This document shows, piece after piece, positions 2 through 48,150 of a DNA stretch of 48,810 nt. Position numbers and translations under genes: made by a program. This DNA comes from a virus. The notes under the pieces are model-generated. The model was not told the DNA's origin. It did no database searches and saw only the letters and a program-made list of their open reading frames with translations. Location: UHGV virus genome UHGV-1373739, one strand, 5' to 3'. How positions within the stretch are numbered: the first letter of the stretch is position 1; each line of letters starts with the position of its first letter.

Positions 2-97
2 AATAGACGTGAGAAAGAGAGGCAGGCAGAGGTTCATGTTATAAGCAAAGAGGACATGAAAGGCTTTGTTGATTTCTTAAAAGAAATTTTTGAATAA
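2..97 (+). CDS. 3' end (C-terminal 31 codons) of an upstream gene truncated by the window edge, ending at TAA 95-97; possibly small terminase subunit given its position directly before terL
   Basis: Frame 2 is open from nt 2 to stop at 95-97 (..NRRERGRQAEVHVISKEDMKGFVDFLKEIFE*); lies immediately upstream of the large terminase. Confidence 0.3.
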   Translation, partial: NRREKERQAEVHVISKEDMKGFVDFLKEIFE

Positions 98-3515: not shown

Positions 3516-3546
3516 AGGGCGGTGGAATATCCGTCCTATTTTATTT
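3516..3546 (+). terminator. Rho-independent terminator after endolysin (AGGGCGG-loop-CCGTCCT + T-rich tail)
   Basis: 7-bp stem with one G-U wobble, 8-nt loop, followed by ATTTTATTT. Confidence 0.5.
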
Positions 3547-5215: not shown

Positions 5216-5242
5216 TGAAGTATAAAAACAAGGCGGTGAAGT

Positions 5243-6211
5243 ATGGCAAAACAAAAGTTCAGTTTGAAAAATGCAGAACAGGTCAGACAAACAACCACCA
5301 TGTCACAACAGAAAGAAATCAAAAGGTTATATGAACAGTTATACCAAGATGTGACAAGGAAGGTTGGACAATTAGGAAACAATAATTTACAGAAACAAAA
5401 CTTGATATTGTTACAGCGTGACATCAAGAATAGGATTGCACAGTTGAACAGTGACATACAGAATGGAATCATCCGAGATATGCGGATAGTTTCAAATGAA
5501 GTTGTGGAAGATACAAGGACATTTCTAAAACAATGTGGTTTTCGTGATGAAGATATACACAATGCGTTTAGTTATGTTCCAGACCAGATTATCAGAAACA
5601 TAACAAGCGGAAATGTATATCAAGATGGGTGGACATTAAGCGGAGCAATATGGGGATATAACAAAAGAACACAGGAAGATTTGAACAAGATTATATCTAT
5701 CGGAACAACACAAGGGAAGTCGGCGGTTGAAATCGCAAGGGAGCTAGAACAATATGTTGACCCTAGTGCAAGGAAATCAGCGAAAACAATTCAGTCATGG
5801 AGATATGACAAAGTGGGAAACAAAACAAAAGACAGTGTATATTTTGGAAAGATTGATTACAATGCGTTACGTTTGGCAAGAACATTGATAAGTCATGCGT
5901 ACCAACAAAGTTTTGAGAATGTAAACAGGAATGACCCTTTTGTTGTTGGGTATCGGTGGTTGACTTCCAATTTTCATGGAAGGGTGTGCGAGATATGCAG
6001 AGCAAGGGCAGAGACAGACCAGTTTGGTTTGGGTGTGGGAGTGTTCCCCAAAGACCAACTACCATTAGACCATCCGAATGGGATGTGCACATTTGAAGCG
6101 GTGATACCAGACAGCATGACAGACATAGCCAGAAAAATAGGGCAGTGGTATCAAGCACCGATTGGAACATACCCAGACATAGATAAATATGCGTTGGATT
6201 TTATTACATAA
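5243..6211 (+). CDS. Minor head protein, Phage_Mu_F / SPP1 gp7 family
   Basis: C-terminal conserved motif ..WLTSNFHGRVCEICRA..DHPNGMCTF.. (HPNCRCT-like) typical of Mu F / gp7 head morphogenesis proteins. Confidence 0.75.
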   Translation: MAKQKFSLKNAEQVRQTTTMSQQKEIKRLYEQLYQDVTRKVGQLGNNNLQKQNLILLQRDIKNRIAQLNSDIQNGIIRDMRIVSNEVVEDTRTFLKQCGFRDEDIHNAFSYVPDQIIRNITSGNVYQDGWTLSGAIWGYNKRTQEDLNKIISIGTTQGKSAVEIARELEQYVDPSARKSAKTIQSWRYDKVGNKTKDSVYFGKIDYNALRLARTLISHAYQQSFENVNRNDPFVVGYRWLTSNFHGRVCEICRARAETDQFGLGVGVFPKDQLPLDHPNGMCTFEAVIPDSMTDIARKIGQWYQAPIGTYPDIDKYALDFIT

Positions 6212-31107: not shown

Positions 31108-32032
31108 AACAAAAGGAATGAACAAAGAAGCGATTATGAAACTATGCTCAGAGATTTCAAAGAAAGAAGGAGAAGGGATTGTTTACAGTCTGGGAAGTAA
31201 AAATGGAGTGTTAAACATTCCTCGTTGGAGAACAGGACTTCCAGACCTTGATGCAATTATAGGGGGAGGGGTACCAAGGGGAAGAACAATAGAAATATTC
31301 GGGGCAGAATCAGCAGGTAAAACAACGCTTGCTTATCAGTTTTGCGCACAACATGAAATGTGTCTTAATATTCCGATTGAGGGTACGTTTGATGCAGAAC
31401 GTGCAAAGTTATTCGGGAACAGACCAAAACAAATGCTAGTATACAGAGCGAGGTATGGTGAAAAGGCTTTTAACAGGGCAATCAGATTTGCAGAAGAAGG
31501 AATACCGCTGATTATAATTGATAGTGTTCCATCTATGCAACCGAAAGATGACATTGACAAAATAAGAAAAGCAGTGAACACAGATAGCGAACAAGAAATG
31601 CGGATAGGTGGAGTTGCAAGGCTCATGGACAAATACTTGCCTACACTTGAGGATGTGATTGAACAAACAGGAACAACGGTTGTGTTTATAAACCAGATTA
31701 GGGATAAAATGAATGCATTGCCTTTTGGAGATAACATACAAACGCCTGGAGGTCATAAGTTGAAACATAGTGCAAGTCTTAGAATACAAGTCGCACGAAA
31801 AGGTTATATTGACATTCCGAACCACAACCCTTATAATAGTGCAAATAAAGAAACGATTGGCATGATTATGAAGTGCAAGGTTGTTAAGTCAAAGGTATGC
31901 AATCCAAAAGGAGAATGCGAGATACCGTTATTTTATGAAAGAGGTTTTGTAGATTTTGCAGACCTAGATATTGTAAGAAAAGAAATCATGGCAGAACATA
32001 AACAGAAGTATAAGGAAATGTTAGAAGATTGA
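31097..32032 (+). CDS. RecA-family recombinase (Sak4/RadA-like)
   Basis: IPRWRTGLPDLDAIIGGGVPRGRTIEIFGAESAGKTTLAYQ matches RecA L1/Walker A region. Confidence 0.75.
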   Translation: MATKTKGMNKEAIMKLCSEISKKEGEGIVYSLGSKNGVLNIPRWRTGLPDLDAIIGGGVPRGRTIEIFGAESAGKTTLAYQFCAQHEMCLNIPIEGTFDAERAKLFGNRPKQMLVYRARYGEKAFNRAIRFAEEGIPLIIIDSVPSMQPKDDIDKIRKAVNTDSEQEMRIGGVARLMDKYLPTLEDVIEQTGTTVVFINQIRDKMNALPFGDNIQTPGGHKLKHSASLRIQVARKGYIDIPNHNPYNSANKETIGMIMKCKVVKSKVCNPKGECEIPLFYERGFVDFADLDIVRKEIMAEHKQKYKEMLED

Positions 32033-34797: not shown

Positions 34798-35075
34798 TAT
34801 GTAATATTAGAACATTTGAAAAAGGAACAAAACAAGTAAAATGCTTCAAAACAAAATATAAAAACATTGTGATTTGTAAATTGAATAACAGATGTTATAG
34901 CATTACCCATTATAAAACAGGTGTTGCATTGAGCTTTGATAGATACAAAACAAAGAAAGAAGCAATCAATAATATTGAAAGTACAATCAAAGAAGTAAAT
35001 AGAAGATTAAAAGAAAACAAAACTACAATGAAACAATTTTGTAAACAAAAAGAAATTGAACAAATAAATTTTTAG
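34794..35075 (+). CDS. Small basic protein (93 aa), TTG start coupled to upstream gene
   Basis: AGGAGG 8 nt upstream of TTG. Confidence 0.4.
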   Translation: MICNIRTFEKGTKQVKCFKTKYKNIVICKLNNRCYSITHYKTGVALSFDRYKTKKEAINNIESTIKEVNRRLKENKTTMKQFCKQKEIEQINF

Positions 35076-35126
35076 GGTGTGAACAATCATGCCCTAATTT
35101 TATTGCAATAAATCAAAACAAAACGC

Positions 35127-35155
35127 TTTACATTGCTCTGGATGTGTGTTATTAT
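35127..35155 (+). promoter_or_regulatory. Promoter (TTTACA, 17 nt, TGtTATTAT) with upstream AAAACGCTTTACA box
   Basis: Hexamers read from sequence. Confidence 0.4.
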
Positions 35156-35247
35156 ATAACCATAGAGTTAAGCAGAGATGGTTAGCAAACACTCAAGATG
35201 CAACAATAACAGATTGAAACAAAAACAAAGAAATTTAACAAAACGTG

Positions 35248-35276
35248 TTTACATTTGTTTTGTGTTGTGTTATGAT
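35248..35276 (+). promoter_or_regulatory. Promoter (TTTACA, 17 nt, TGtTATGAT) with upstream AAAACGTGTTTACA box
   Basis: Hexamers read from sequence; tandem to 35127 promoter. Confidence 0.4.
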
Positions 35277-35322
35277 ATAGTCACAAAGGAAATGGAGAAC
35301 AAAACGAGAAGGAGTTAAGAAC

Positions 35323-36212: not shown

Positions 36213-37352
36213 ATGAAAACAAGAACATTTGTAGAGGTTATCAAAAAAGACGAGGAACATGTAGTTGCTAGAACAAAAACAGATTTTGGTGTTATTGATA
36301 TTAAAAGGACATTCAGAAAACATACAAAGGAAATCAGAGAGTTAAAGAAACGGGGTATCTACTGCTTTGAAATACAAGGCGTGTTATATTGGTATACATT
36401 CAATGAACTTGGATTCGGAACACAGTATAAAGAACCAGAGAACTTCCGAGCAGAAGATAGAACAACAGATGAACTTCGCAGAGCAGGAAGGAAAGACAAA
36501 GCAGTTGTTGATGGTAGCGTAGAATTAAGAATACCAGAGGTTAAGAAGGAACAGAATGAAGTCAAAAAGGAAGAACCAAAAGAGGATTGGAACAAAGAAG
36601 TGAAACACAGCAAGTTCGATATGATTAAGGCTTGCATAGAAAATGACATTCCTGTTTATCTTACAGGACCAGCAGGAAGTGGAAAAAACTACACACTGGA
36701 ACAGATTAGTTGGGAACTTGGTTTAGAGTTTTACTTTACAAACAGTGTTCAGCAGGAATACAAACTGACAGGTTTCATTGATGCAGGTGGACAGTACCAT
36801 GAAACAGAGTTCTACAAGGCATTTAAAAACGGAGGGATTTTCTTCCTCGATGAAATGGATGCAAGTATTCCAGAAGTTCTGGTTTTACTCAATGCGGCAA
36901 TCGCAAACAGATACTTTGAGTTTCCAAATGGTAAAATCAAAGCACACAAAAACTTCCGTGTTGTTGCGGCAGGAAACACAGTTGGAAGTGGTGCAGATGA
37001 AATGTATACAGGACGTTTGGTATTAGACCAAGCAACTCTGGATAGATTTGCAATCATTGATTTTGGTTATGACCGAAACATTGAAATGCACATTGCAAAA
37101 GGAAACAAAGAACTTGTTGATTTTGTGGAAGCAATCAGAACAGAAGCAAATACAAATGGAATCAGAGCAACATTCTCATATCGTTGTATTGGAATGGTAA
37201 CAAAGTTGGAAAGAACAGGAATTGAATTAAAGGACATCCTTGCGATAGCAGTATTCAAAGGAATGGAGAAAGATACCATTAACAATTTCAGATTGTACAC
37301 ACTGAATAATAAATACAAAACAGCACTGAATGAATTACAGAGGGTAGCCTAA
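36213..37352 (+). CDS. AAA_5 (MoxR/CbbQ-like) ATPase with ~150-aa N-terminal extension
   Basis: Walker A LTGPAGSGKNYT, Walker B IFFLDEMD, sensor region FRVVAAGNTVG..LDQATLDRF; ATG 36213 with GAAGGAGAAGAGG RBS. Confidence 0.7.
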   Translation: MKTRTFVEVIKKDEEHVVARTKTDFGVIDIKRTFRKHTKEIRELKKRGIYCFEIQGVLYWYTFNELGFGTQYKEPENFRAEDRTTDELRRAGRKDKAVVDGSVELRIPEVKKEQNEVKKEEPKEDWNKEVKHSKFDMIKACIENDIPVYLTGPAGSGKNYTLEQISWELGLEFYFTNSVQQEYKLTGFIDAGGQYHETEFYKAFKNGGIFFLDEMDASIPEVLVLLNAAIANRYFEFPNGKIKAHKNFRVVAAGNTVGSGADEMYTGRLVLDQATLDRFAIIDFGYDRNIEMHIAKGNKELVDFVEAIRTEANTNGIRATFSYRCIGMVTKLERTGIELKDILAIAVFKGMEKDTINNFRLYTLNNKYKTALNELQRVA

Positions 37353-37375
37353 CATGGCTACCTGTTCTGTTGTCT
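37342..37375 (+). terminator. Hairpin GGGTAGCC-TAACAT-GGCTACC + U-rich tail overlapping the ATPase stop codon
   Basis: Perfect 7-bp stem read from sequence. Confidence 0.45.
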
Positions 37376-44154: not shown

Positions 44155-44564
44155 TGAGGAAGAGCAGAACAAAGAATAGAGGAAGAAGAGGGAACAGCAT
44201 ATTGATTGTGTTGTTACAAACATTCGGGGAATTGTTAGCAACCTTTAAATACGGATTGATTGAGGAATTAGACAAGGTTGCTGTGGTGTTACAGATATTG
44301 ATACCGATTGTGATTGCTAGAACGGATTTAAGCACTCCTAAGATGTTGCTAGTATCGTGTGTTCTGGTGGTGTGTGTTAAGTACATACGAGAAGTATGGT
44401 ATAAATTAAACCGTGTAACAGAAAGAGGATTTCCAATACCATTACATAGGTTTACGGACAGAGATGAAAATGGGTTTATTAGTATAAGAGAAGAAGAAAC
44501 ACAAGAAGCAATGCTTTATTTGTGTGATGTAGAGGACTATTTAAAAAGCAAAGGTTGGTTGTAG
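44154..44564 (+). CDS. Membrane protein (basic N-terminus, ~3 TM helices, soluble C-terminal domain)
   Basis: Hydrophobic segments ILIVLLQTF..VVLQILIPIVIA..LLVSCVLVVCV. Confidence 0.5.
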   Translation: MRKSRTKNRGRRGNSILIVLLQTFGELLATFKYGLIEELDKVAVVLQILIPIVIARTDLSTPKMLLVSCVLVVCVKYIREVWYKLNRVTERGFPIPLHRFTDRDENGFISIREEETQEAMLYLCDVEDYLKSKGWL

Positions 44565-44570
44565 TAAGAT

Positions 44571-44732
44571 ATGAAAGTACCATGTAAAAGCTGTGCTAGA
44601 CGGGCAGTCAAATGCCATGCGAACTGCAAGGAGTATCAAGAGTTCCAGAAGGAAAATGAAGAAATCAAAAAGAACAGAAAGAAGGATGCAATCAGTCGTT
44701 CTACCATATTCCGAGCGAATTATCACAATTAA
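44571..44732 (+). CDS. Possible small Cys4 protein (53 aa): MKVPCKSCARRAVKCHANCKEY..
   Basis: ATG-initiated ORF not in track; weak RBS. Confidence 0.3.
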   Translation: MKVPCKSCARRAVKCHANCKEYQEFQKENEEIKKNRKKDAISRSTIFRANYHN

Positions 44733-44735
44733 GTG

Positions 44736-44764
44736 TTGACAATTCAAACATAATGTGATACAAT
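44736..44764 (+). promoter_or_regulatory. Promoter (TTGACA 44736-44741, 17 nt, TGaTACAAT)
   Basis: Consensus hexamers at start of a ~330-nt ORF-free region. Confidence 0.5.
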
Positions 44765-44770
44765 CTGTTA

Positions 44771-45045
44771 TAGAAACGGAGTTGTGTATGGATTGGCACA
44801 AGTAAGTGGTAGCCCGTAAAGGAGAAATGCCTACCCATAAAATAGAAATCGTAATGCCGCATTATTGGTAGCCATTTATGAATCATGGTACAAGACACTT
44901 TATAATTTTATTTGTCCGTTTGGTGTAATCGTGAAACACCGTTGTAACCCGTAAACAAGAAAAATTGAATAATGCATCTATATGCGGCATTGCGGTTTTA
45001 TATAGATAAACAATGACAGACAAGGTTGCCCTTGTCTTATTGTGT
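44771..45045 (+). ncRNA. Candidate structured non-coding RNA (or replication origin): ORF-free transcript bounded by promoter and a GACAAGG-TTGC-CCTTGTC-TTATTGTGTATTT terminator
   Basis: No + strand ORF; long-range complements TAATGCCGCATTA (44852-44864) / ATATGCGGCATTG (44981-44993); repeated GGTAGCC and CCCGTAAA boxes; local hairpin GGTGT-AATCGTGAA-ACACC. Confidence 0.35.
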
Positions 45046-45091
45046 ATTTAGAGAACAAAACATAAAACAAAGCAGGAGGAAAACAAGAAAG

Positions 45092-45598
45092 ATGGGAAGA
45101 AGGAAAGGCAGAGAAGTCAAAGAAGCAAGCGAGAATCTCATACCATTAAGCGAACGCTCTATGGAAGAACGAAAACGAATCTCCAGAATGGGTGTAGAAG
45201 CAAAGCGAAAGAAGAAAGAACAGAACATGGCGTTACAAAACTGTATGCGTCAATTATTGGAGATGAAAACAAACAGTGATAAGAAAAAACAGGTATTACG
45301 TTCTTTTGGATTTACAGATGAGGAACTTACCAATCGTTCGTTACTGATGGTTGCATTGTTTCAAAAAGGTTTAACTGGTGATGTTTCTGCAATCAAAGAA
45401 ATCACAGACATGATGGATAAATTGGATATGTTTGAAAACACAGGAAAGATAACAAGTAACGTAACAATCAATCTGGTTGCTAAAGGGGAAACATATCAGC
45501 CAAATGAAGCAGATGAACAGGAAATCTGGGACGCAGAGAATGGAACAGACTTAATAGAAGATGATGACGAATGGGGAGATGACGTTTATGATGGATAG
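45092..45598 (+). CDS. Hypothetical basic/acidic protein (169 aa)
   Basis: ATG 45092 after GCAGGAGGAAAAC RBS (ORF-track start 45026 is inside the terminator). Confidence 0.5.
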   Translation: MGRRKGREVKEASENLIPLSERSMEERKRISRMGVEAKRKKKEQNMALQNCMRQLLEMKTNSDKKKQVLRSFGFTDEELTNRSLLMVALFQKGLTGDVSAIKEITDMMDKLDMFENTGKITSNVTINLVAKGETYQPNEADEQEIWDAENGTDLIEDDDEWGDDVYDG

Positions 45599-45806
45599 TG
45601 TCAGAGAAGCGTCAGACGTTGATATAGGGAGAGATTATGGAGTTACCCTAAGAAGTCCTCACCTTAATACAGAAAATGGCTTAAAAGGGCAAATAAACGG
45701 CTTACAGAGGTTATCTGCTTTGGAATGGTTAAGGAAACACACAGAACAAAATGAACTGTTTTCCAAGAATATATTGACAAACATATCAGAACATGATATA
45801 ATTTAA
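45561..45806 (+). CDS. Hypothetical protein (alternative starts at 45579/45588)
   Basis: ORF overlapping 3' end of upstream gene; GGGGA at 10 nt before ATG 45588. Confidence 0.4.
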   Translation: MMTNGEMTFMMDSVREASDVDIGRDYGVTLRSPHLNTENGLKGQINGLQRLSALEWLRKHTEQNELFSKNILTNISEHDII

Positions 45807-46367: not shown

Positions 46368-46456
46368 TAAAACAGAAAGTGGAACAATACAACCTTGATG
46401 TGGTTGATTTGGGAAAGGAATTAGAAGCAGAGTGCAGTGTGGAACTTCTGTTATAA
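46364..46456 (+). CDS. Possible 30-aa peptide coupled (ATGA) to upstream small ORF
   Basis: ATG after GGGAAGGAGA. Confidence 0.25.
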   Translation: MIKQKVEQYNLDVVDLGKELEAECSVELLL

Positions 46457-46514
46457 CAAATCAAATACCTATTAGGAAATGAAAGGGAAGTCAGAGAAAG
46501 GAAACTATATAAAT

Positions 46515-46544
46515 TTGACAGGACAGAACAGAGATTGTTAGAAT
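46515..46544 (+). promoter_or_regulatory. Promoter (TTGACA, 18 nt, TGtTAGAAT) with overlapping TAGAA-TAG-TTCTA inverted repeat and downstream TAGAACA direct repeats
   Basis: Hexamers and repeats read from sequence upstream of parB-like gene. Confidence 0.5.
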
Positions 46545-46659
46545 AGTTCTATGAGTTCATACAAGAATAGTATATAACAAGTATACAAAGAACAATAGAA
46601 CATAACATACCATTTAGAACAAAGACAGAACAAAGAATATAGAAAGGGGCATAGAATAC

Positions 46660-47313
46660 ATGGGAGCAAAAGCAAGTGGTATCAAGGTAACATACAGAAA
46701 CATCAAAGAATTAAAACCATATAAGAAGAATGCAAAGAAGCATCCAAAAGAACAGGTTGAACGAATTGCGAATAGCATTAAACAGTTTGGGTTCTTTGAG
46801 CATAGAGCAGTAGCAATCGACAGTGAGGACAACGTAGTGGAAGGACACGGAAGAATCCTAGCGGCAAAGAAAGCAGGATTGACACAAGTGCCTACAATCT
46901 GTTTAGATGATATGACAGAAGAACAAATCAAAGCATGGCGTTTGATTGAAAACAAAACAGCAGAATCCAGTTATGATGAAACATTGATAAACAAAGAAAT
47001 TGAAGAATTGTTACAATCAGACATAGATATGGAGGCGTTCGGATTCAGCGTTGATATTCTGGAAGATGAAACAATAGAGGTTGAACCAGATGTACCTTTT
47101 ACAGAGATACTTAACGAAGAAAATAATTACATTGTGTTAAAGTTCAATAACAAGATTGATTGGATTAATGCAATGGGGATATTTGGAATTGAGAAAGCAA
47201 AAGCGTACCCTACAAGGAAAGGAGGAAACAAAAAGACGTTTGATATGCAAGGAGTAGGAAGGGTGCTAGATGGACAGAAAGCGTTAGAAAGGGTGACAGG
47301 GAATGAGATATAA
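46660..47313 (+). CDS. ParB N-terminal-domain (ParB/Srx-like) protein
   Basis: ..IDSEDNVVEGHGRILAAKKAGLTQVPTICL..EEQIKAWRLIENK matches the ParB box (GHRR-like motif). Confidence 0.7.
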   Translation: MGAKASGIKVTYRNIKELKPYKKNAKKHPKEQVERIANSIKQFGFFEHRAVAIDSEDNVVEGHGRILAAKKAGLTQVPTICLDDMTEEQIKAWRLIENKTAESSYDETLINKEIEELLQSDIDMEAFGFSVDILEDETIEVEPDVPFTEILNEENNYIVLKFNNKIDWINAMGIFGIEKAKAYPTRKGGNKKTFDMQGVGRVLDGQKALERVTGNEI

Positions 47314-48112
47314 GGGAAAAGAAATCATTGTTGCTTGCCCGTCTTATAAACGTTATAAGGTAGAGACATTAGCATACATTCCGTTTTGTAAAGTCTATGT
47401 TTCACCAGAAGAATATGAAGCATATTTAGAGTTCAATCCAAAACACAAAGACAACATTGTGAAGTGTCCGAAAGGTGTACAAGGGAATCTGTGCAGGGTT
47501 CGTAACTATATCCTTGGCACAGAGTTTGAAAATGGTGCAGATATTGTTTTATTGATTGATGATGATTTACGAGCGATTGAACATTTTGAAATGTCAGAGG
47601 ATGAAACATATGCGTATGAAAAAGTCAAAGTAAAATCAGATGAAATATTAGACTTCTTATATCGTTATTCTTTATTATGCCATGACTGGGGTTTTAAGTT
47701 CTGGGGATTGAATTGCAACAGAGATGCAATGTCATATCGGCAGTATTCACCATTCAGCACCACATCATATATTGGAGGACCTTTCCAGTGTTTCTTAAAG
47801 GGGAACGAACTCAGATATGATGAACGATTACCGCTGAAAGAAGATTATGATATGACTTTACAGAACATGAATCTGTACAGAGGTGCATTGAGATTGAACA
47901 AATACCATTATGTATGTAGACAGTCAGAACAAAAAGGCGGTTGTGCTATGTACCGTAACATGCAGAGGGAGAAAGAACAATTTGAATTGTTGAGGCAGAA
48001 ATGGGGAAGCAACATAGTAAGATTGGACACATCAAACAAAGGACGAAGCAAAAAGAACAGAAAGTATATAGACTACAATCCGATTATAAAGATACCAATA
48101 AAAGGTATATAG
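47303..48112 (+). CDS. GT-A fold glycosyltransferase-like protein (putative)
   Basis: N-terminal EIIVACPSYKRY (GT2-like hhhhP.Y strand) and DXD-type motif ADIVLLIDDDL ~80 aa later; ATGA-coupled to parB-like gene. Confidence 0.4.
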   Translation: MRYKGKEIIVACPSYKRYKVETLAYIPFCKVYVSPEEYEAYLEFNPKHKDNIVKCPKGVQGNLCRVRNYILGTEFENGADIVLLIDDDLRAIEHFEMSEDETYAYEKVKVKSDEILDFLYRYSLLCHDWGFKFWGLNCNRDAMSYRQYSPFSTTSYIGGPFQCFLKGNELRYDERLPLKEDYDMTLQNMNLYRGALRLNKYHYVCRQSEQKGGCAMYRNMQREKEQFELLRQKWGSNIVRLDTSNKGRSKKNRKYIDYNPIIKIPIKGI

Positions 48113-48119
48113 CAGAGAG

Positions 48120-48150
48120 GGGCAGAACATTGTTTCTGTCCTTTTTATTT
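48120..48150 (+). terminator. Rho-independent terminator GGGCAGAA-CATTGT-TTCTGTCC-TTTTTATTTTT
   Basis: 8-bp stem with one wobble, T tail. Confidence 0.5.

Follow-up and report, generated by a model that had tools for sequence, protein, structure and literature searches.

A covarying two-hairpin RNA between a promoter and a terminator-like hairpin, upstream of a probable small-terminase-like gene in phages of gut Clostridia

Between positions 44733 and 45091 of virus genome UHGV-1373739 (48,810 nucleotides, nt; this whole stretch is the window), a gap separates an open reading frame (ORF) for a 53-amino acid (aa) Cys-rich protein (44571-44732) from a gene for a 168-aa protein that starts at ATG 45092. 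Compensatory changes in relatives mark the gap as the site of a genuine structured RNA that is read from the + strand. On the same sequence comparisons, the RNA is a new family of a known kind, absent from Rfam and, as far as sampled, confined to one clade of phages of gut Clostridia. A promoter, a conserved RNA structure, and a terminator-like hairpin occur here in a fixed order and with a fixed link to the downstream gene. On balance, we read the region as a cis-regulatory leader, of one type or another, that would control the termination of transcription ahead of the gene at 45092. The parts central to this reading are:

44736-44764, + strand: sigma-A (sigma-70-type) promoter, TTGACA-17-TGaTACAAT, with 11 of 12 consensus matches plus an extended TG
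About 44771, + strand: transcription start, as predicted from the position of the promoter
44775-44845, + strand: 5' RNA module of ~70 nt (GGAG box, hairpin 1, AAGUG linker, hairpin 2, A-rich tail), delimited with covariance model R1
44782-44801, + strand: hairpin 1, UUGUGU/GCACAA, with loop AUGGAUUG holding GGAU (44790-44793), from covariation
44808-44835, + strand: hairpin 2, with the universal register GGUA (44808-44811) / UGCC (44828-44831) and AGCC at 44811-44814, from covariation
45010-45050, + strand: intrinsic-terminator-like hairpin AGACAAGG-TTGC-CCTTGTCT, core 45018-45037, extended stem 45010-45041, U-rich tail UAUUGUGUAUUU, from sequence and energy
45074-45598, + strand: Shine-Dalgarno sequence AGGAGG (45074-45079) and the 168-aa gene, whose start at ATG 45092 is conserved

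Relatives of the region were gathered with a DNA word search, a search with the downstream protein, and a scan of viral and metagenome collections for a degenerate motif. Covariation was assessed across 20 distinct lineages (given L numbers here) drawn from gut phage contigs and Clostridium phages CS266P1-4, to which the region is ~73% identical. Hairpin 1 has compensatory changes at six of six base pairs and 94% of its alignment cells are paired. Its arms occur as UUGUG/CACAA, UUAUA/UAUAA, CGGUG/CACCG, GUACA/UGUAC, AGUCAA/UUGACU, and AUGUUU/AAACAU. Sliding the partner by one to three columns lowers pairing from 97% to 29-46% (27-46% over the slid controls as a whole), and none of 500 shuffles reached the observed covariation score. 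All 20 lineages keep hairpin 2 paired in its universal register; two of its pairs have swaps from GC to AU, and a third is UG, UA, or CG. Variants include GGUA/UGCC, a form with UACC as 3' arm, GACA/UGUC, AACA/UGUU, and, in L171, GUUG/CAAC. An alternative register, GGUAG/CU(A/G)CC, ends at 44835 in the window and is unavailable in the L041, L167, and L171 lineages. Because the features of the region are conserved with compensatory changes in relatives, they exceed what chance would produce. A covariation check in homologous phages had been proposed in a first-pass annotation made from the letters of the window; when run, it found compensatory changes at the module and also at a long helix and an inner hairpin located 3' of it, both of which already had such changes in the first three-way alignment.

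Nucleotides outside the stems are also conserved. In the layout of the module, AGCC follows the 5' arm of hairpin 2, AAAU precedes its 3' arm, and CC and then an A-rich stretch come last. Positions free of variation are, in GGAU, the second G and the A; in AAGUG, the second A; in AGCC, the G and first C; in AAAU, the AA; and, last, the terminal CC. The GG of GGAU and the CC of AGCC are a possible contact, pairable in 100% of lineages. In L169, GGAU is changed to AGAU and AGCC to AGCU, a single compensating A-U swap at this contact, and L171 has C, G, and C in place of U23, A43, and U62, a coordinated change that would be compatible with a base triple. These two single-lineage events are only suggestive of a loop-loop contact (pseudoknot or base triple) between GGAU and AGCC. 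A CsrA site, with GGA in the loop of hairpin 1, was considered and seems less likely, as the changes in L169 fit RNA-RNA pairing better. A Shine-Dalgarno-like GGAG or GGA is located 1-3 nt 5' of hairpin 1 in most lineages; in some, it can pair with a CCUC/UCCGU box in the sequence inserted after the module (inverted repeat I9; L174), though not consistently.

The strand that functions can be read from the base pairs. Of 20 lineages, 11 have U·G at pair 38-60 of hairpin 2. In the long helix, three positions are occupied by U·G in 19-20 out of 27 sequences. On the - strand these frequent pairs would be C·A mismatches, so the + strand is taken to be the functional one. The folding z-score is lower on the - strand than on the + strand, which we judge not to outweigh the U·G evidence.

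The covariance model places the module once in the genome, with 81.1 bits (E value of 2e-21) at the module and 10.8 bits for the next best match in the window. It also matches 32 related loci, plus L167, L169, L170, L172-L174, and L177. True matches to the motif come only from gut samples, mostly as human-gut metagenome contigs and including one lemur faecal virus (Dulem virus 36). Every one of them has a TTGACA 35-50 nt upstream; the remaining matches are chance occurrences inside unrelated GC-rich genes. Two identical copies of the module are present on contig NFZD01003831.1 (99,679 nt; L124, L162). Genomes in this phage group measure ~49 kb, roughly half that length. The contig is probably not a prophage but a concatemer or a duplication made in assembly. 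A scan of the whole window against Rfam 15 at the gathering threshold gave zero matches, which answers another check proposed in the annotation: no known family is found in the window. A permissive scan of 44500-45300 returned only a chance match to RT-6 (E value of 6.2) outside of the RNA, and none of the leaders of ten other lineages matched Rfam 15.

The module is embedded in a constant arrangement. Across ~20 lineages, the order is promoter, module, optional insert, one or two terminators, Shine-Dalgarno sequence, and gene. The promoter is kept at the same place upstream of the module in all lineages examined, and the module begins 12-25 nt after the predicted transcription start in most; in L174, an additional hairpin precedes the module. 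The distance from module to terminator is highly variable, from ~10-65 nt up to several hundred. In every lineage read (partly scored, partly by eye), a GC-rich hairpin with a U-rich tail is located ~15-65 nt before the start codon. The one in the window, with its extended stem CAAUG..CAUUG, has a folding energy of -11.8 kcal/mol and five U in a 9-nt tail. Two terminators in tandem are found in L048 and L169, which points to selection for tight stopping. In L049, the sole terminator is hairpin 2 itself, in its alternative register and lengthened by an A tract and a U tract. The Shine-Dalgarno sequence follows ~35 nt after the terminator in the window and 2 nt after it in Dulem virus 36. A promoter, a structured element, a terminator, and a gene in this fixed combination are the hallmark of a cis-acting leader, here one that would control termination.

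The RNA module is strictly linked to one gene family, that of the 168-aa protein. In a promoter scan, none turned up from the terminator to ATG 45092, and the first one after that, at 45774, belongs to the following gene; the gene for the 168-aa protein is therefore expected to depend on read-through. For this reason, a leader fits better than a free small RNA (sRNA). The 168-aa protein has a basic (Arg/Lys-rich) N-terminus and an acidic C-terminus, and belongs to PHROG 2412, where function is given as unknown. All 26 of 26 homologs match DUF5681 weakly, below threshold. Its AlphaFold model is helical but poor (predicted local distance difference test, pLDDT, of 51), and a PDB sequence search with the protein found nothing. 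Searches of the protein with PADLOC and Pfam gave no defence-system match beyond chance level and, again, DUF5681 alone as a weak hit. Homologs are also present in Streptococcus satellite phages, and in Streptococcus phage Javan420 (L176), a homolog is encoded immediately before the genes for the large terminase and portal. Because of this last position, the product is probably a small-terminase-like protein. In the window, the gene is ~4 kb before the large terminase gene. In Javan420, the Shine-Dalgarno sequence of the terS-like gene also comes ~15 nt after a strong terminator (2460-2500; AAAGAAGCTCATGCTTCTTTTTTTATT), which leaves no room for a promoter and suggests that expression of terS by read-through may be a wider theme in Firmicutes phages.

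In the window, a structured domain separates the module from the terminator:

44846-44998, + strand: domain closed by a 17-bp long-range helix (44846-44862 / 44982-44998), from inverted repeat I1 and covariation
44868-44891, + strand: inner hairpin GUA(G)CCAU/AUGGUAC, holding the second GGUAGCC and covarying from AU to GC and from UA to CG
44921-44941, + strand: hairpin GGUGU/ACACC, from sequence

The long helix exists in three sequence versions (window, CS266P, and L005 types), all of which are still paired. The domain itself is specific to lineages. It is replaced by unrelated inserts, also closed by a long helix, in L039, L041, L065, L167, L171, L172, and L174, and there is no insert in L048, L049, L102, and Dulem virus 36; a helix of 14-20 bp closes the insert in most lineages with long leaders. 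In L169 (1145-1480), a domain with a long helix and its terminator are duplicated in tandem as two ~170-nt copies between the module and the gene.

These findings change the picture drawn in the first-pass annotation, which had treated ~330 nt as a single unit and stressed complementary blocks of 13 nt. Only the first ~70 nt are universally conserved, and the blocks belong to the lineage-specific insert. They are present, as reported, yet 13 nt is too short: the arms are 17 nt each, 88% complementary, and 119 nt apart. The local hairpin GGTGT..ACACC (44922-44940) was correctly recognized. So were the two duplicated boxes, GGTAGCC at 44808 and 44867 (five copies in the whole window against 0.93 expected) and CCCGTAAA, which is part of a 22-nt direct repeat (44806-44827 / 44941-44962, 82% identical) and has three copies of its type in the region. 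Repeats in the region are dispersed, in two to three copies at spacings of 21, 114, and 135 nt with no tandem array, and the repeated boxes are conserved in the window lineage alone. A 13-nt repeat, AAACAAGAAA(A/G)AT, is located at 44953-44965 in the structured domain and again at 45081-45093, between the Shine-Dalgarno site and the start, where it overlaps the ATG. The GGUAGCC heptamer of the leader is also carried by a terminator-like hairpin, GGGTAGCC-TAACAT-GGCTACCT, at the end of a 385-aa gene (37342-37363). That hairpin shares 10 nt (GGGUAGCCUA) with hairpin 2 of L049, which may be coincidence or a shared recognition motif.

We infer that the leader is transcribed and terminated and that its read-through is controlled. 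Host sigma-A RNA polymerase would start near 44771, and the first ~70 nt would fold into the two-hairpin element, in which GGAU of the hairpin 1 loop may touch AGCC by hairpin 2. The lineage-specific domain closed by the long helix would emerge next, followed by the intrinsic terminator 55 nt before the start codon, where most transcripts would stop by default and leave a ~270-nt RNA. The gene product would be made only upon read-through of the terminator. The 5' element, alone or with a phage or host factor, would alter the elongating polymerase so that it resists the one or more terminators downstream, in the manner of nut or put elements and not via a local antiterminator hairpin. In the window and in L001, L040, L065, L171, L172, and L102, complementarity between the arms of the terminator and the upstream leader does not exceed that of shuffles (z of -0.7 to +1.5), which speaks against a local antiterminator and in favor of an action that is independent of distance or sequence. 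A local antiterminator hairpin was accordingly discarded for the window lineage. In other lineages, the 3' arm of hairpin 2 pairs with the terminator: perfectly with the 5' arm of the second terminator in L048 (z of -4.9) and, at the same place, weakly in L177 (z of -2.1); L174 has a different weak site (z of -2.0). Within the leader reading, the type that modifies polymerase is a tentative choice, and a type that switches registers or hairpins is somewhat less credible still. For the window lineage in particular, we favor the polymerase-modifying model with modest confidence, its functional steps being predicted.

Several points weigh against a termination-control leader, or against its polymerase-modifying form. 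The tail of the terminator is only moderately U-rich (5/9). The window has 23 consensus promoters, including some in the structural-gene region, and a single antitermination switch is thus unnecessary for late genes; control by the leader may be limited to one or two genes. Other than that of the leader, no terminators were found on the + strand before 48115, so the processive aspect of antitermination has nothing to act on in the window. The pairing of hairpin 2 with the terminator in L048, L177, and L174, and its use as the sole terminator in L049, favor a local conformational switch. The upstream Cys-rich ORF is neither always found with the RNA nor always accompanied by it, and no factor emerges from the comparison. 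Transcription, the 3' end, and read-through are also themselves predictions.

Known systems offer partial precedents. The putL element of phage HK022 is ~70 nt, has two stem-loops, and is located just after a sigma-70-type promoter and ahead of terminators (PMC9378689). Function of put requires a precise fold that includes a triplex at stem I, and the element acts in cis and without a protein factor (PMC9378689). By description, the module is alike in its size of ~70 nt, its two covarying stem-loops, its position next to the promoter, and a possible base triple or loop contact. It differs in that the host is a Gram-positive Clostridium rather than E. coli, that it precedes a packaging-type gene whereas put precedes early operons, and that hairpin 2 is itself a terminator in some lineages (L049). 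Resistance to terminators via the zinc-binding domain of the RNA polymerase beta' subunit is a feature of put, and for the module it would apply by analogy alone. That the 70-nt element is a self-sufficient put-like RNA, which would bind the RNA polymerase of a Gram-positive host upon emergence, make it resistant to terminators, and thereby gate the small-terminase-like gene, is a speculative proposal that we consider improbable in this specific form. Just 3' of hairpin 2 is a -10-like hexamer, TAAAAT (44838-44843), shared by several lineages though not by all. For putL, folding has been proposed to benefit from a sigma-dependent pause caused by a -10-like element (PMC9378689).

The order of parts here also resembles that of phage lambda leaders in some respects. 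In both pL-nutL-N and pR'-qut-tR' (6S RNA) of lambda, a constitutive strong promoter is followed by a short terminated leader, and downstream genes are expressed after antitermination. The N leader consists of an RNA recognition site, a long helix sensitive to RNase III, and a gene whose small product is basic at its N-terminus. The 168-aa protein likewise has an Arg/Lys-rich N-terminus. Unlike nut, the module has no conserved boxA-like block and no 5-nt GNRA-like boxB loop; its loops, read directly from the alignment, are 8-11 nt. Q acts through DNA, whereas the module covaries as RNA, and family scans found no homologs of Q or N among the neighbouring proteins.

Closer in host range are the RNA-based processive antitermination systems of Firmicutes, which include EAR of the eps operon of B. 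subtilis, canT of Tn916 (studied as a 452-nt fragment), and conAn1/conAn2 of pLS20 (PMC11658703). One such system pairs RNA with a small protein (PMC11658703; see also PMC10325885). Like the region studied here, these are structured cis leader RNAs behind a main promoter that concern read-through of intrinsic terminators in Gram-positive hosts. Unlike it, they head long operons with several internal terminators, whereas the leader terminator is the only one here before the one that closes the operon, at 48115. The lack of an Rfam match bears only on such families as Rfam holds. Riboswitches and attenuators share the order of promoter, element, terminator, Shine-Dalgarno sequence, and gene, the presence of invariant unpaired nucleotides beside covarying stems, and, in L048, an alternative pairing with the terminator. 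In contrast, no known class matches, the window lineage has no competing antiterminator pairing, and no ligand is suggested by the gene. Type III toxin-antitoxin systems of the ToxIN type have a promoter, a non-coding RNA, a terminator that sets the ratio of RNA to protein, and a gene of ~170 aa. This layout is the same as here, including the ~170-aa gene. The candidate nevertheless fails on repeat structure and toxin family, since the region has no ~36-nt tandem repeats and the protein has no ToxN, AbiQ, CptN, or TenpN match, is predicted to be helical, and is small-terminase-like.

Other explanations account for parts of these data. The first-pass annotation had offered an sRNA, a cis leader, and a replication origin side by side; the two RNA readings are sustained by the compensatory changes, the G·U pairs, and the combination of promoter and terminator, and the origin is not supported, with no regular iterons and a flat skew. 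A free-standing sRNA would be a discrete ~270-nt transcript that acts in trans, by pairing with messenger RNA (mRNA) or by binding or titrating a protein, with read-through incidental. A strong promoter followed by a conserved, highly structured RNA and a terminator is compatible with this, as are the conserved unpaired nucleotides in AAGUG, AAAU, and the final CC, and the motifs like hairpin 2 that recur in the domain (GGUAGCC twice; the 22-nt repeat) could be repeated binding sites. Yet the downstream gene is without its own promoter and strictly linked to the RNA, the Shine-Dalgarno sequence so close behind the terminator suggests one transcription unit, and the body outside of the 70-nt module is swapped wholesale between lineages, which is unusual for a trans RNA with a conserved target; we consider an sRNA rather improbable. 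A riboswitch-like or protein-dependent attenuator, in which the hairpins and their loop contact form a pocket whose occupancy blocks the register slip of hairpin 2 or its 3' arm and so sets whether the terminator forms, is unlikely but deserves more weight than an sRNA. Hairpin 2 has two mutually exclusive registers, of which the alternative one is the only terminator of L049, and the pairings in L048 (z of -4.9), L177, and L174 are of the kind such a switch would use. The invariant loop and linker nucleotides and the candidate pseudoknot or base triple (changes in L169 and L171) are typical of aptamers. Set against these, the window lineage and six others have no pairing above chance that competes with the terminator, the module is 170-400 nt from the terminator with unrelated inserts between, the regulated gene is of a phage packaging type rather than metabolic or transport and suggests no ligand, nothing in Rfam matches, and the pseudoknot rests on two single-lineage events.

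The same parts could serve the RNA itself or the DNA. As a processing or stability leader, the GGAG box and hairpin 1 would shield the 5' end, in the manner of STAB-SD or of 5' stem-loops in Bacillus, and the long helix would be an RNase III site that separates the element from the mRNA. The Shine-Dalgarno-like sequence just before hairpin 1 and the closing helix of most long leaders are in keeping with such a role, and the order of parts would, by analogy, mirror pL-nutL-RNase III hairpin-N of lambda. Stability, however, does not need the conservation of GGAU, AAGUG, and AGCC or a covarying hairpin 2, the module is kept in lineages without a long helix (L048, L049, L102, L177), and with the extra 5' hairpin of L174, it is not always at the 5' end. 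As the whole explanation, this is very unlikely; a role in stability or RNase III processing may exist alongside regulation. Least plausible is an element that works as DNA, either a replication origin or a pac or cos site, with the repeats as protein-binding sites. Sites for pac or cos are often directly upstream of small-terminase genes. The region occupies that place relative to a probable small-terminase gene and contains direct repeats (CCCGTAAA-type three times, GGTAGCC twice). The compensatory changes, however, preserve complementarity between arms 119 nt apart, as expected of a single-stranded nucleic acid and not of protein-binding duplex DNA, and the G·U asymmetry indicates one transcribed strand. 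The spacings of 21 and 114 nt are not those of regular iterons, GC skew is uniformly positive throughout the window and has no inflection, and the repeated boxes are restricted to the window lineage. An iteron-type replication origin was rejected, as neither a regular repeat array nor a switch in strand composition was found.

Coding does not explain the gap. The ORF listing has no + strand ORF of at least 30 aa inside 44733-45091, which bears out the annotation of the gap as ORF-free, and a TTG ORF from 45026 is a mere upstream extension of the gene with the conserved start at ATG 45092. Coding on the - strand (ORFs of 65 and 46 aa) is implausible given indels of 1 and 2 nt across the region in relatives and a G·U pattern that matches the + strand. 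A leader peptide readable in the window as GGAG-N6-AUG GAU UGG CAC AAG UAA was dismissed, as its start is UUG in CS266P and UAG in L039, and is absent in L041. The annotation was also right about the promoter, TTGACA-17-TACAAT with an extended TG, and about the hairpin and T-rich tail of the terminator, at which termination is predicted. It overstated how exceptional the gap is in claiming that all neighbouring gaps are under 100 nt: others exceed 150 nt, and with 46368-46659 and 34798-35322 likewise uncovered by ATG-started ORFs of at least 50 aa, the gap is among the largest, not unique.

Directly upstream of the leader is the Cys-rich ORF:

44571-44732, + strand: 53-aa Cys-rich ORF with the motif PCxxCxxRxxxCHxxC, ending 3 nt before the promoter

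Its Cys/His motif is invariant in nine lineages and its family comprises at least 84 protein clusters from phage contigs. The ORF is unannotated in the GenBank records of CS266P and has no Pfam, PHROG, or NCBIfam family. By analogy to Com of phage Mu, and because the two are adjacent, the protein was considered as a dedicated RNA-binding partner. This is not supported, although the protein may still act as a factor: distant homologs are directly followed by other genes, with neither a gap nor the module, and Dulem virus 36 carries the module but no Cys-rich ORF at that place.

The leader is located at the junction of replication genes (RNase H) and modification and packaging genes. A ParB_N-domain protein and a TET-associated glycosyltransferase (TAGT) are encoded between the 168-aa gene and the large terminase gene (226-1584 of the window). 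The two (46660-48112) are in that order, the ParB_N-domain protein also matches the PADLOC model "Type II methyltransferase," and a strong terminator at 48115-48146 ends the pair. The pair resembles a DNA hypermodification module and is syntenic in relatives. A search for transfer RNA (tRNA) and transfer-messenger RNA genes found none in the window; the L049 lineage has two tRNA genes (5217-5365) ~2.7 kb downstream of its leader.

The promoter of the leader is not special, being one of 23 near-consensus promoters in the window. These sigma-A promoters (TTGAC[A]-16..18-TAtAAT) are all on the + strand, with none on the - strand, and 16 match at 12/12 positions. Examples are at 3545, 5188, 6616, 15087, 17918, 19331, 23774, 24480, 26754, and 27946, and further on at 31809, 38512, 38795, 41131, 41984, and 45774. 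Several are within long ORFs and the structural-gene region, and their number is far above chance. This surplus raises the question of how the phage times gene expression.

To our knowledge, essentially nothing is known of the timing of gene expression in virulent phages of gut Clostridia. Phages of the clade carry some two dozen consensus host promoters, and no late activator can be recognised in them. A conserved RNA supported by covariation and flanked by a strong promoter and a terminator, where the packaging and modification region begins, offers a concrete control point. If it is an antitermination RNA, it would extend a small set of antiterminators made of RNA alone or of RNA with a small protein (put, EAR, canT, conAn) to Firmicutes phages and provide a compact ~70-nt part for engineering read-through, and if it is self-sufficient in the way of put, it would be the first such element in a Firmicutes phage. 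If it is instead a switch that responds to a ligand or protein, it would represent a new class of regulatory RNA. Either way, the leader contributes a new RNA family to catalogues, in a clade for which cultured phages CS266P1-4 and their host strain exist.

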